Shown in pieces: positions 1 to 3,845 of a stretch of 31,542 nucleotides of DNA; position 1 is the first letter of the stretch, and each line of letters begins with the position of its first letter. The translations under genes were made by a program, and so were the position numbers. The notes beneath the pieces are model-generated. The model had not been told where the DNA came from. It searched no databases and saw nothing but the letters and a program-made list of their open reading frames with translations. This DNA comes from a virus (lineage: Duplodnaviria; Heunggongvirae; Uroviricota; Caudoviricetes): positions 1 through 31,542 of the IMG/VR virus record IMGVR_UViG_2711768060_000013; one strand, 5' to 3'.

Positions 1-147
1 CTCCTGCCATACCTGCTTCCCCGTTTTATCGCTGTCTGTCGGTGTCGCGGTATAGGGTACATATTCCTCCATATCGTCAAATAATATTTCGCAATTTATC
101 GCCCCGTGTTCAAGGCTGACAGGATTTTTTATATCTGTAATGTTCAT
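1..147 (-). CDS. 5'-partial ORF (49 codons, MNITDIKNPVSLEHGAINCEILFDDMEEYVPYTATPTDSDKTGKQVWQE, runs off window start); possible tail-fibre assembly chaperone or other distal tail gene
   Basis: ATG at 145-147 overlaps the TAA stop of the upstream fibre gene (TAATG on minus strand); frame open to position 1; position after a fibre gene suggests a chaperone but the sequence itself is not recognised. Confidence 0.4.
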   Translation of the reverse strand, partial: MNITDIKNPVSLEHGAINCEILFDDMEEYVPYTATPTDSDKTGKQVWQE

Positions 148-2318
148 TAACGATACCTTATAAATATTCCCAGAATATAATCACTCGTTTTCAGCCACGG
201 ATAGGAGGTCAGACTCCAGTAATATCCGGGAAACGTATGTTCCTCTTTAATATGAAGAGTCTGTTCGCCACTTTCATCGACTGTAATTATATATGGCTTC
301 AGAAGTGAACCACTTAAAGCATCACCTCGCTTCAGGGTGTATCCTCCGGGCTTATCCTGATAACGAAATGCCGCCTGAACAATACCGCCAGCCTCCGGTG
401 ATGCATTCAGCCCGTTGGAATAAACTGTACCGGACAAAAAATCAATTAATTCCTTATCAGTTCGTCTCCAGAGTTCCCATGCCGGGACACCAGAAGTGCC
501 ACGGGCGTAATAAACCTCTCCATTAACACCGTAAAAAAAATAAATCTTTTTTACGCCGTTAGTTGTACCTGCTAAATTTGAAGCCCAGATAATTTCAAGA
601 ATTCCACTGAATAGTACTTTTGGTATCACTATGTCGGGGTTTGCATAAACCAGATAACGCCCCGGTTTTGCGTCTCTTATCCAGGAATCAAATTCGGCTC
701 TGGTGTCAAAGCTAATCCTGTCATTAATATGAAAAATTTCACCAAAACCCAGTGCCCCCGGTATCGCCAGTCGGCCTTCTGTCCGGTCGTAAATATCACT
801 CTGTGGCTCCATTGTGGCGGCGCTTTTCAGCTCCAGTACTGTTCGCATGGCTTCCGGCGTTTCCTGCGCCAGCAGTGAGCGTCCCTTTTCTGACAGGGGC
901 GCAAGGGAGACGTATTCATCTGTGTCAAAGTACGGAAGCGTGTCAGCACGTTGTGTCAGGTTGCTGAGTGCCGTTAACACATCACTGAGTGGTTGTTTAC
1001 CCGCCAGCGCGTTAGTGACGGTTGTCGCAAAGTTCGGGTCATTGCCCAGCGCCGCCGCCAGTTCGTTCAGCGTGTCAAGGGCTTCGGGAGATGAATCCAC
1101 CAGTGCAGCGAGCAGTTTGCGGACAAACGCCGCATTAGCTATTTCAGTGCCTGCTGCATCATCTGGCGGTGTTGGCGCTGTCGGCGTTCCGGTCAGTGCC
1201 GGGCTGTTTAGTGGCGCGCGGGTTTCAATCAGTGCCCTGAGTGAAGCCTCGTTGACCTTCAGGTTCTCCCAACCAACCAGATAACCACCACTGGCAGTCC
1301 AGTAACGGTTGTAATAAACATGGCCGTTAATGCCATAGAAAATAATGATTTTAGGTATATATACCGGACTGGGATTGTGCTGATATTCTGGCCAGATAAT
1401 GTCAACAGTACCACTGAACAGCACACCCTGTATTACCACATTTGTACGTGCATAAACGGTATAGCGTCCGGGGTTTGCCCTTTTTACCCACAGTAGAAAA
1501 TCAGCCTCTGTTTCAAACTCTGTCCTGTCGTCATAGGAAAATATTTTCCCGAATCCGAACATGCCGGGAACCGCCAGTCGGCCTTCTGTCCGGTCATAAA
1601 TATCACTCTGTGGCTCCATTGTAGCGGCGCTTTTCAGTCCCAGATTATCGCGGGATTCCTGTTGCGCCTCTTCGCCTTCTGCCGCAATTTCTGACAGGTG
1701 GTTAGCCGTTTTGAGTGTCGCTGATAATGCGGTATCAATCTCATCCCTGGCCTGCTCCGCATCAGATGCGGCCTTTCTGGCAGCTTCAGCATCCTGCCTG
1801 ACCTCTTCGGCGGTATCCTCAATCTGAGAGGCCAGAATTTCGACCTGTTTTTTGTCTTCGGCAACGGCCTCTGCGTTCTGCTGTACGTTATCCGCCAGCG
1901 TCTCGCAGTCGCTCTTAATTTGTTGCGCATCAGCGACATGTTGCCCGGCCTGTCGTTCGCTTTCCGCTGCCGCTTCCGCGCTCTGCTGCGCCTGTTGAGC
2001 CAGTTCCTCGAATTTCTTCAGAGCTTCCGGGCGCAGGTCAATATCGGTTGCGCCCAGAAAATCATTCAGCGAACCGTCCGTTGAATCTTCATAAACGCGG
2101 ATGACACCGATTTCTGAAAGGCGCTGTGTGCTTTGTGTCAGGCGAACGCTGTACACACCCGGCAGAACGGGGAAGTCATATTCCCCGTTCTGTGTGGTGA
2201 CATGGCTGAAAACACTTTTCAGAATTCCTGCACGGTTGTGCAGGGAGGTCAGTGTAATGGTTGCGCCGCCCAGCGGTTCTCCCGTGGGCGTTTTAATCAC
2301 ACCTTTAAGCTGCGGCAT
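147..2318 (-). CDS. side tail fibre protein, 723 aa, lambdoid Stf-type N-terminal domain plus P2 gpH/Stf-like collar, internally duplicated module
   Basis: ORF track; N-terminus (VYEDS..GSLNDFLGA..RPEALKKFE) resembles the Stf-family N-terminal domain; Ala/Glu-rich coiled coil; APLNSPALTGTPT..ALVDSSPEALDTLNELAAALGNDPNF block typical of P2 H / Stf fibres; ATG at 2316-2318 with GGAG 8 nt upstream. Confidence 0.85.
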   Translation of the reverse strand: MPQLKGVIKTPTGEPLGGATITLTSLHNRAGILKSVFSHVTTQNGEYDFPVLPGVYSVRLTQSTQRLSEIGVIRVYEDSTDGSLNDFLGATDIDLRPEALKKFEELAQQAQQSAEAAAESERQAGQHVADAQQIKSDCETLADNVQQNAEAVAEDKKQVEILASQIEDTAEEVRQDAEAARKAASDAEQARDEIDTALSATLKTANHLSEIAAEGEEAQQESRDNLGLKSAATMEPQSDIYDRTEGRLAVPGMFGFGKIFSYDDRTEFETEADFLLWVKRANPGRYTVYARTNVVIQGVLFSGTVDIIWPEYQHNPSPVYIPKIIIFYGINGHVYYNRYWTASGGYLVGWENLKVNEASLRALIETRAPLNSPALTGTPTAPTPPDDAAGTEIANAAFVRKLLAALVDSSPEALDTLNELAAALGNDPNFATTVTNALAGKQPLSDVLTALSNLTQRADTLPYFDTDEYVSLAPLSEKGRSLLAQETPEAMRTVLELKSAATMEPQSDIYDRTEGRLAIPGALGFGEIFHINDRISFDTRAEFDSWIRDAKPGRYLVYANPDIVIPKVLFSGILEIIWASNLAGTTNGVKKIYFFYGVNGEVYYARGTSGVPAWELWRRTDKELIDFLSGTVYSNGLNASPEAGGIVQAAFRYQDKPGGYTLKRGDALSGSLLKPYIITVDESGEQTLHIKEEHTFPGYYWSLTSYPWLKTSDYILGIFIRYR

Positions 2319-2835
2319 CGGGACGCTCCGGCCAGTTGATGGAGTAAAAGGAGGCTTCGTCAGTAACGGTGCTTAAATCCAGTGCCTTTACCGCTTTGAT
2401 ATATGCCATCCACTGCGTAAGACGGGCTTTATCATCGTCGCTGATGGTGCCCAGCTCCAGCTCGGTTTTCCAGTCGGAGGTGATGTCCTTTGCTTCATTC
2501 AGCAGGCGCTGGCGTTGTTTTTCTGATAATCGTGGGTAATCAACAGGAACCGGCAGCACTTCGCCGTCTTTGTAATACCAGCTGGCTTCAATGCCAAAAC
2601 CTTCCGGCAGTTCATCCACTTCCACAATGGTAAAACCAACGGGATAAAGACGGGACACGTCTTCTGCCATTGAATAAATCACGCCGGATTCCGGGTGAAC
2701 ACACAATTTGTATTTCTTCGTGAATTTATCCAGTGATTCATAAAAATCCTGTCCGTCTTCACTGCGGAAATACTGAATGTTTTCACCATAAGGCATCTCT
2801 TCCAGGTAATAACGCGAGACGTTTCTGAGTTCCAT
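2305..2835 (-). CDS. tail fibre assembly protein (Tfa/U-like chaperone)
   Basis: C-terminal motif (ARLTQWMAYIKAVKALDLS...INWPERP) typical of Tfa family; start moved to ATG at 2833-2835, which has a perfect AAGGAG 7 nt upstream (the track start at 2871 overlaps the previous gene); follows a fibre gene. Confidence 0.8.
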   Translation of the reverse strand: MELRNVSRYYLEEMPYGENIQYFRSEDGQDFYESLDKFTKKYKLCVHPESGVIYSMAEDVSRLYPVGFTIVEVDELPEGFGIEASWYYKDGEVLPVPVDYPRLSEKQRQRLLNEAKDITSDWKTELELGTISDDDKARLTQWMAYIKAVKALDLSTVTDEASFYSINWPERPDAAA

Positions 2836-2849
2836 TATTTTCTCCTTAA

Positions 2850-3845
2850 TTAGCCGGATACCGTGCGCCATCCGCCATTGATATAAATCTGAGTTTGTTT
2901 GTAATACACGCCGCCGATGTTATCCGCAGAGCTCCTGCCAGTATCCTGAACGTTAATACCTGACAAAATACAACCTGAAGGCGCGCGAAATACCCAGGAA
3001 ATTTCGTTACCTCCGGGATTGTGAAACACTTCGCTGGTATATCTGAAATCACGCACAGCGCCGGAATCGGTGCTGCTGATGGTGATATCGCGGGTACCAT
3101 CAAATGCCGTACCGTTAATTTTGCGTGGGGTCTGTAGTTTGGTGGCGGTTGCTGCGTTGAAGCTGTCTTTTGATGTATACACCTGTGCCCATTCGGACCA
3201 GCTGGCATCTGCAGAATCACGTCTTGAACGGATATAAACCGGGGCATGCGCTCCACTCGTACCACTCCAGCCAATCAGCAGTTCACCTTCGCCTGATGCT
3301 GTCGCGCCTTTCAGGTGCAGAACATTGCCATAAGTGATGGGGTAGCCGTTGTTGTACGCTTCATACATCTGCAGCCCTGCATTGCCCTGTGCTGTGCCGC
3401 TTAATGCCGTCATCCGTCCTTTTGATAAAAGGGTGTCCGGTGACAGGCCAATTGCTTTAATAAATTCGCTGGCTGTGGTTTTCCCGAGAATACCGCGCAC
3501 AAAAGCACTGAGCGGCGTTAATGCCATTGTGTCTTCGCCCGTAAAATACGGGAACGTATTATTCTGACCGGTTAATCCGGCAATAGCTCCGGCTGAACCA
3601 CTGTTCGTAATAAACAGTTTTTTCAGCGCCGTCATAATCTGGTCGGTGGTGTTTTTATCCGGTTTGATATTTGCCTGCCGGAGAATTTCCAGCAGTTCGG
3701 ACTGAATAATATTAAACCAGTCCGGCCCCGGATAGGTGGGCGGAATACCATTCCCGCCTTCGGTGAAATAAAGCGTTGTTTTGCTTAATTCAGCCGCGAC
3801 AGGTGGCATTACCGGCACACCCGTCGGATTATCCACATGAAACAT
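2850..3845 (-). CDS. tail fibre protein (Mu S-like position), 331 aa
   Basis: ORF track; position directly after the baseplate genes; C-terminal ATKLQTPRKINGTAFDGTRDITIS and SWSEWAQVYTSKD motifs shared with Stf-type fibres. Confidence 0.8.
   Translation of the reverse strand: MFHVDNPTGVPVMPPVAAELSKTTLYFTEGGNGIPPTYPGPDWFNIIQSELLEILRQANIKPDKNTTDQIMTALKKLFITNSGSAGAIAGLTGQNNTFPYFTGEDTMALTPLSAFVRGILGKTTASEFIKAIGLSPDTLLSKGRMTALSGTAQGNAGLQMYEAYNNGYPITYGNVLHLKGATASGEGELLIGWSGTSGAHAPVYIRSRRDSADASWSEWAQVYTSKDSFNAATATKLQTPRKINGTAFDGTRDITISSTDSGAVRDFRYTSEVFHNPGGNEISWVFRAPSGCILSGINVQDTGRSSADNIGGVYYKQTQIYINGGWRTVSG

Follow-up and report, generated by a model that had tools for sequence, protein, structure and literature searches.

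Mosaic evolution of tail-fibre genes at conserved motifs was reportedly described by Haggard-Ljungquist in 1992 and by Sandmeier in 1992 and 1994 for P2 H, Mu S, P1 S and lambda stf, and the 'His boxes' or 'glycine islands' of T-even gp37/38 are said to have been recognised as recombination motifs by Tetart in 1998. Exchange of stf/tfa regions between phage and resident E. coli prophages by relaxed homologous recombination has been shown experimentally (De Paepe et al. 2014, PMC3945230). With regard to protein architecture, tandem Knob1/Knob2 domains occur in R-type pyocin fibres (PDB 6CL5/6CL6; Buth et al. 2018, PMC6116203), and the Knob-like domains of T4 gp34, phage K gp144 and phi11 gp45 are among the closest known systems to the modules described here. 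We have analysed a stretch of 31,542 nucleotides from a virus of the Caudoviricetes (IMG/VR virus record IMGVR_UViG_2711768060_000013, positions 1 to 31,542; hereafter the window) and, within it, the gene of a second tail fibre of 723 amino acids, which carries a nearly identical 66-bp direct repeat in frame. Each copy encodes a 22-residue stretch, here called the neck, that precedes one of two diverged knob-like modules. The best explanation, which we consider probable, is that of a modular fibre whose necks have been homogenised by recombination and serve as joints.

Two nearly identical necks within one tail-fibre gene

The gene and the two repeat copies have the following positions in the window:

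147..2318, minus strand: second tail-fibre gene, 723 amino acids (open reading frame; N-terminal PF08400 and CarboxypepD_reg domains; match to the tail-fibre family PHROG 2636, E=8e-198)
1572..1637, minus strand: neck 1, residues 228-249, LKSAATMEPQSDIYDRTEGRLA (direct comparison)
765..830, minus strand: neck 2, residues 497-518, the same 22 residues (direct comparison)

Direct comparison and a pattern search agree on 64 identical bases out of 66. Both copies are in the frame of the fibre gene, and the two differences between them are synonymous (GCT/GCC for Ala and TAT/TAC for Tyr), leaving runs of perfect identity of 14, 26 and 24 nucleotides. The spacing of the copies is 807 nucleotides or 269 codons. 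Dinucleotide-preserving shuffles of the window yielded zero matches at three or fewer mismatches; the pair had been missed by an automated repeat search and is visible by direct comparison. Past the repeat, in the 3' coding direction, homology between the copies extends for about 105-125 residues more at ~50% amino acid and ~57% nucleotide identity, whereas 5' of the Leu codon of the neck it ends abruptly. The repeat, its in-frame spacing, and a diverged domain after each copy that is duplicated at the protein level had all been reported in an earlier note on this DNA and were reproduced here. The same note described the repeats as flanking a duplicated module, and on this point it has to be corrected: each repeat heads one module copy, and the second copy has an extra tip of ~98 residues. 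The repeat pair is real and not an assembly artefact, because full-length two-neck alleles are present in several independent E. coli assemblies and the gene order is also found in the E. coli contig L001, whose neck 1 is not identical.

Homogenisation of the necks

The neck peptide is kept in every module copy across the family. When identical residues with degenerate codons are compared, the same codon is used at 19 of 21 positions between the two necks and at 19 of 41 between the module bodies (Fisher p=8e-4). The window's two necks differ at 2 of 66 nucleotides, while orthologous necks differ at 10-14 and the necks of a family of ~1035-residue fibres at 19-30. In two three-unit genes, L002 and L007, copies 1 and 2 of the neck are likewise 3-4 nucleotides apart, within surrounding units that are 60-90% identical. 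Paralogous necks are thus closer to each other than orthologous ones, synonymous sites included, and with sharp borders, which is what we took to identify a conversion tract; its limits in the window gene are a homology edge at coding nucleotide 682 and module-specific sequence from nucleotide 748. This pattern is the signature of short-tract, non-reciprocal recombination, and the near-identity of the necks appears to stem from recent recombination and not from conservation. A sister Mu-like phage, L003, has the two-knob layout of the window gene with unlike necks; therefore, the layout is old and the identity of the necks recent. Pairwise identities of the module bodies are ~60-70% in all pairings, values that are saturated and unstable with free end gaps, and no grouping by position or by gene is readable from them.

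The comparison with L001, in which the fibre gene lies on a contig next to uspF-ompN and is ~99% identical to the window gene outside a single patch, resolves one such tract:

1578..1633, minus strand: exchange patch inside neck 1, coding nucleotides 686-741, separating window-type and L001-type alleles

From about residue 113 to the stop codon the DNA of both genes is 98-100% identical except for these coding nucleotides, where 22 differences are concentrated in 56 nucleotides (LTVTATMEPQDGTHDRTAGRLA) between identical flanks. This places 22 of all 45 differences within 66 of 1842 nucleotides (binomial P~3e-20). Both neck-1 alleles occur in several E. coli assemblies (nine of the window type and four of the L001 type) and on different N-terminal anchors. 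On the other hand, the PF08400 anchor, i.e. the first ~100 residues, is only ~35% identical between window 2020-2318 and L001:4001-4320, against 98-100% for the remaining 1.8 kb. A second mosaic joint is therefore located at about coding nucleotides 300-330, and the anchor seems to have been exchanged there for one that suits another phage.

The neck as a joint and fibres with one, two or three units

Homology to the ~1035-residue E. coli fibres (L006, L008) runs from coding nucleotide 716, in the middle of neck 1, to nucleotide 1553, at the end of neck 2, and is not found beyond. Neck 1 is preceded by a further element that also occurs with other N-terminal anchors:

1638..1706, minus strand: coil-end flank ANHLSEIAAEGEEAQQESRDNLG, directly 5' of neck 1, conserved in relatives

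Over its 69 nucleotides this flank has one mismatch to the window in L001, none in L005, two in L009 and four in L010. Flank (ANHLSEIAAEG..AQ..SR..LG) and neck are also found together on PF12571 (P2-type collar) anchors with various distal ends, so that one flank plus neck stands on two unrelated N-terminal anchors, PF08400 and PF12571.

A one-knob fibre is represented by the intact 398-residue protein WP_001275090.1 (P0189), encoded on a 5.19-Mb contig; the DNA of this one-knob allele was read solely from a frameshifted cluster-mate, L010. The sequence of L010 resembles another locus, L011, until ~12 nucleotides into the coil-end flank and from there the window/L001 clade (one mismatch in the next ~57 nucleotides), followed by a single neck with 64 of 66 bases identical to either window copy, by knob 2 and tip at 96%, and by DUF4376. 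Aligned with the hypothetical product of an 807-nucleotide deletion between the window necks, P0189 is identical at 241 of 262 residues, with no gap, across the joint. The joint of WP_001275090.1 is precisely the one that an in-frame deletion of 807 bp would leave, although its N-terminal anchor is another. Three-unit genes, L002 and L007, represent the opposite outcome. The combination of a PF08400 anchor with a single neck and knob 2 was not present among the 14 members of the 90% cluster. The module family as a whole has 88 representatives among 1.84 billion representative proteins, mostly with one copy and some with two or three; two weak family matches show six matched stretches. Intermediate neck alleles (GCC...TAT) are carried by L009 and L010.

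These data bear on the remaining proposals of the earlier note. Gene conversion, which it had suggested, is supported by the codon usage, by the distance of the necks (2 nucleotides against 10-30 in orthologues) and by the 56-nucleotide patch in neck 1 of a ~99% identical allele, and the deletion joint that it predicted exists in a natural gene, WP_001275090.1/L010, though with another anchor and in another prophage. The proposal of a recombination linker also holds in substance: block borders within the necks, flank plus neck on two unrelated anchors and the natural deletion joint speak for it, but the 66-bp DNA is not conserved family-wide and only the peptide motif is. Similarly, the search for the linker in other fibre genes recovered the 22-residue peptide in every module copy, while an exact scan for the 48-nucleotide neck core returned L005 and L009 only and no genome or metagenome contig. 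Exact scans for the upstream flank of neck 1, the start of module 1 and the 48-nucleotide core together yielded these two IMG/VR contigs and were empty in four genome/metagenome scans; therefore, the specific DNA is rare.

Several records of the family deserve separate mention. Two IMG/VR contigs stop exactly at the repeat, one at the end of neck 1 (L005:11781-11846) and one at the start of neck 2 (L009:1-10), which indicates that the 66-bp repeat breaks short-read assemblies; broken assemblies probably explain many 'partial' proteins in the fibre family. The frameshift of the one-knob gene on the Logan contig L010 lies inside knob 2 (L010:4760-4900) and is either a sequencing error or a recent pseudogene. 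E. coli KTE48 (P0179, P0181, P0190) has a two-knob gene truncated by a frameshift to 601 residues, plus a fragment in the one-knob cluster; both kinds of fibre gene may reside in different prophages of this one cell, an opportunity for inter-prophage exchange. In P0188 (Logan contig, 680 residues) a terminase-like N-terminus is fused to the fibre rod, probably by chimeric assembly.

Protein anatomy and predicted module structure

Apart from the flank and the necks, the fibre is made up of the following parts:

1926..2318, minus strand: virion-anchor domain PF08400, residues 1-131 (Pfam match to residues 4-131; matches the N-termini of PDB 9e7m and 7kjk)
residues ~95-225: Ala/Gln-rich helical rod, similar to the rod of PDB 7kjk
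1251..1571, minus strand: body of knob-like module 1, residues 250-356
831..1250, minus strand: shaft/collar segment, residues 357-496, with the widespread LDTLNELAAALGNDPNF motif (residues 394-459 match PDB 9d93 'tail collar fibers', E=5e-11)
444..764, minus strand: body of knob-like module 2, residues 519-625, which aligns to module 1
150..443, minus strand: distal beta-rich tip, residues 626-723, absent from module 1 (PHROG 2636 positions 441-566 are matched by the second copy only)

The PF08400 match scores 100.2 bits against a gathering cut-off of 26.6, which places the protein among the PF08400-anchored prophage tail fibres, named 'prophage tail fiber N-terminal domain-containing protein' at NCBI, and the shaft/collar segment is matched by many tail-fibre PHROGs. 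The repeated module has no Pfam model and NCBIfam gave nothing useful for it; a sequence search of the PDB matched the anchor and the collar and not the module. PHROG 2636, a 568-position profile of single-module fibres, aligns to module 2 and tip over positions 321-566 and to module 1 over positions 321-440 only; therefore, module 1 repeats the distal region only in its first half. The tip is presumed to be the receptor-binding end, and beyond near-identical alleles it has three weak sequence matches only. Although the gene is from E. coli, none of 5,426 complete RefSeq genomes of that species contained a match to knob 2 plus tip (window 150-764), a rare and presumably receptor-binding end.

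The structures of the modules were predicted as monomers. In the AlphaFold2 (AF2) model of residues 215-723 the module bodies have a predicted local distance difference test score (pLDDT) of ~90 (81-91 in module 2), the tip consists of beta strands with a pLDDT of ~80, and the necks are of low confidence; module 1 modelled alone reached a pLDDT of 85 and a predicted template modelling score (pTM) of 0.76. The comparison of both modules that had been proposed earlier gave an equal order of one helix and four strands in the two bodies, exactly 269 residues apart. The best structural matches of the ~107-residue alpha+beta domain are the phage fibre Knob-like domains of R2 pyocin, T4 gp34 and phage K gp144, a Knob, as defined on the structures of R-pyocin Knob1/2, being a compact domain whose antiparallel beta-sheet has 5-6 strands joined by loops or a helix, and which assembles as a trimer with the sheets buried at the three-fold axis. 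According to these models the neck would be the conserved lead-in to a Knob-like domain of ~107 residues. The second fibre is presumably trimeric, and its knobs or tip would bind the receptor.

Prophage context of the second fibre gene

The window comprises most of a Mu-like prophage, with the Mu A and B transposition proteins, the Mu portal, protease, gpT capsid and sheath, and it also encodes the baseplate proteins gp44-48. An exact-sequence look-up identified the 723-residue fibre with WP_053289364.1 of E. coli. Its neighbours are:

2850..3845: first fibre, 331 amino acids
2305..2871: Caudo_TAP chaperone of the first fibre
1..147, minus strand: initial 49 codons of a DUF4376 gene that runs past the end of the window (100% identity with the beginning of L001:6181-6744, PF14301 DUF4376)

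Two tandem fibre-plus-chaperone sets, the 331-residue fibre with Caudo_TAP and the 723-residue fibre with DUF4376, occupy window 147-3845 on the minus strand. Mu itself has an invertible G segment instead of two tandem fibre sets. Baseplate J, gp48, fibre 1 and Tfa precede the second fibre gene and DUF4376 comes after it, a position that, together with the full-length match to PHROG 2636, identifies it as a member of the fibre family; the gene order is equal in L003 and L008, with com and mom sometimes next. The ATG of the DUF4376 gene overlaps the stop codon of the fibre gene (TAATG). The second fibre probably has the DUF4376 product as its chaperone; in Alteromonas phages, proteins with DUF4376 serve fibres in this way (PMC7289586, PMC10579305). 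In many NCBI records, fibres of this family go under the name 'shikimate transporter' (P0013, P0017, P0023 and others), evidently a propagated misannotation.

Discussion

The architecture that we propose would read, from the N-terminus, PF08400 anchor, helical rod, neck 1 with knob 1, collar/shaft, neck 2 with knob 2 and tip, with the DUF4376 chaperone gene next. The 22-residue neck is a strongly conserved peptide that introduces every knob copy in the family. No other part of the unit is conserved as well, and for this reason recombination would be located here: diverged fibre genes, or two units of one gene, could retain enough DNA identity to recombine. The two necks of the window gene would have been homogenised recently by short non-reciprocal exchange of at most 56-66 nucleotides, either by gene conversion between the necks or by patches from a closely related fibre gene. 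The repeat, the homogenised synonymous sites, the patch polymorphism, the block borders within the necks and the natural forms with one, two and three units, the exact deletion joint among them, are observed here; the direction of conversion, the recombination pathway and receptor binding by knobs or tip are inferred. As a direct repeat, the necks would further support unequal homologous exchange, by which a 269-codon knob-plus-shaft unit could be lost or gained in frame, and the sequence 3' of the neck could be swapped through the same repeat.

A number of points weigh against this proposal. The longest perfect run between the necks, 26 nucleotides, is near the lower limit for RecA-dependent exchange, and given such short perfect identity the exchange events may be rare. 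The one-unit form proves that the joint exists and not that an intragenic deletion took place in this phage, as it has a PF12571 anchor and belongs to a different prophage. With respect to the direction of exchange, the outgroups L002 and L003 carry a window-like neck 1, the divergent patch of L001 may by this comparison be the derived state, and a donor for the L001-type patch was not found among the alleles compared. Nonetheless, each window neck is much more similar to the other than to any orthologue, and homogenisation between the necks is therefore still required.

The alternative that survives best, although we regard it as rather unlikely, is that modules were swapped on two separate occasions with donor genes of one kind, each swap leaving a donor-type neck at its crossover. 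The homology blocks shared with the ~1035-residue family start and stop inside the necks, flank and neck stand on unrelated anchors, and L009 and L010 have intermediate neck alleles, all of which would be expected from such swaps. However, a two-knob gene with this flank already exists in the diverged sister L003, so the architecture predates the homogenisation, and two independent crossovers with near-identical donors are needed where one intragenic conversion suffices; in practice, two swaps would be a variant of the same recombinational explanation. An extension of the proposal that goes considerably further, and to which we give little credence, is that the paired necks act as a recurrent copy-number switch, with exchange in the prophage or during replication continually generating virion sub-populations with one, two or three knobs and thus with different fibre length or receptor reach, the necks being kept homogenised by selection because such variability widens host range.

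A recent duplication of the whole unit, after which the bodies diverged fast under diversifying selection and the neck stayed constrained, is very improbable. Receptor-binding domains do evolve fast and the neck peptide is under strong purifying selection family-wide, but the synonymous sites of the bodies are near saturation too (19/41 identical codons, 57% nucleotide identity), there is zero homology upstream of the necks, and knob 1 is closer to the middle knob of other genes (80% identity) than to knob 2 (~50%); L003 and L001, moreover, have the same layout with unlike necks. Still less can be said for a functional nucleic-acid element, i.e. an RNA structure or a target for site-specific recombination, for instance by an invertase of the Gin/Cin type working on direct repeats. 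The invertase crossover sites of Mu, P1 and e14 do lie inside fibre genes, at the boundary of constant and variable parts, and a cix site is annotated in P1. Neither repeat copy, however, has a stable RNA fold with or without its flanks (z = +0.2 to +1.0), the window has no gix/cix-like core beyond chance and the fibre gene none at all, and in relatives the fibre gene is followed by DUF4376, Com and Mom, with no invertase gene next to the fibre in L001, L003 or L008; the nucleotide sequence is also not kept in other genes with the same peptide. An invertible or excisable segment of the Gin/Cin/Pin type was rejected as a candidate in its own right, with no sites beyond chance, no adjacent invertase and repeats that are direct. 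An assembly artefact as the origin of the repeat or of the two-module order, which the two IMG/VR contigs ending exactly at the repeat could suggest by way of a short-read assembly disturbed there, can practically be dismissed, since the modules after the copies are ~50% identical, beyond any collapse or duplication error, the order recurs in L001, where neck 1 is not repeated, and eight full-length 726-residue alleles come from independent assemblies with contigs of up to 881 kb.

Homogenisation of the necks by recombination makes this locus a new example of a known phenomenon, namely mosaic fibres that recombine at conserved motifs and knob duplication, and it involves no new mechanism. Particular to this case is the neck motif, which belongs to second fibres with a PF08400 or PF12571 anchor and a DUF4376 chaperone. 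Patch, deletion joint and expansion at one 22-codon neck constitute an unusually explicit allele series and show, cleanly and on a small scale, how the genes of one fibre family are rebuilt. For the engineering of chimeric fibres with a PF08400 or PF12571 anchor, the neck and its ANHLSEIAAEG...LG flank would, in addition, mark a natural site of splicing.

Compared with the relaxed recombination between phage and resident prophages described by De Paepe and co-workers, that system has longer homologies and lambda Red, whereas no Rad52-like recombinase turned up in the Mu-like window, where none was searched for. The locus resembles the G, C and P segments of Mu, P1 and e14 in having a repeated sequence at the border of constant and variable fibre parts, in allowing alternative distal ends and in belonging to a Mu-type phage. 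It differs from them in that the repeats are direct, a gix-like core is missing and no invertase is found next to the fibre in relatives; any exchange here would be general homologous recombination and not reversible. The likeness to the fibres of P2, Mu, P1, lambda and the T-even phages extends to short conserved stretches that border the exchanged blocks, to distal modules on unrelated anchors and phage types, and to the outcome, a shuffling of host-range modules. Unlike in those fibres, the motif and the family are others, i.e. PF08400/PF12571 second fibres of Mu-like and P2/HP1-like prophages with DUF4376 chaperones, and the joint is present twice in one gene, so that a change of copy number in frame becomes possible.

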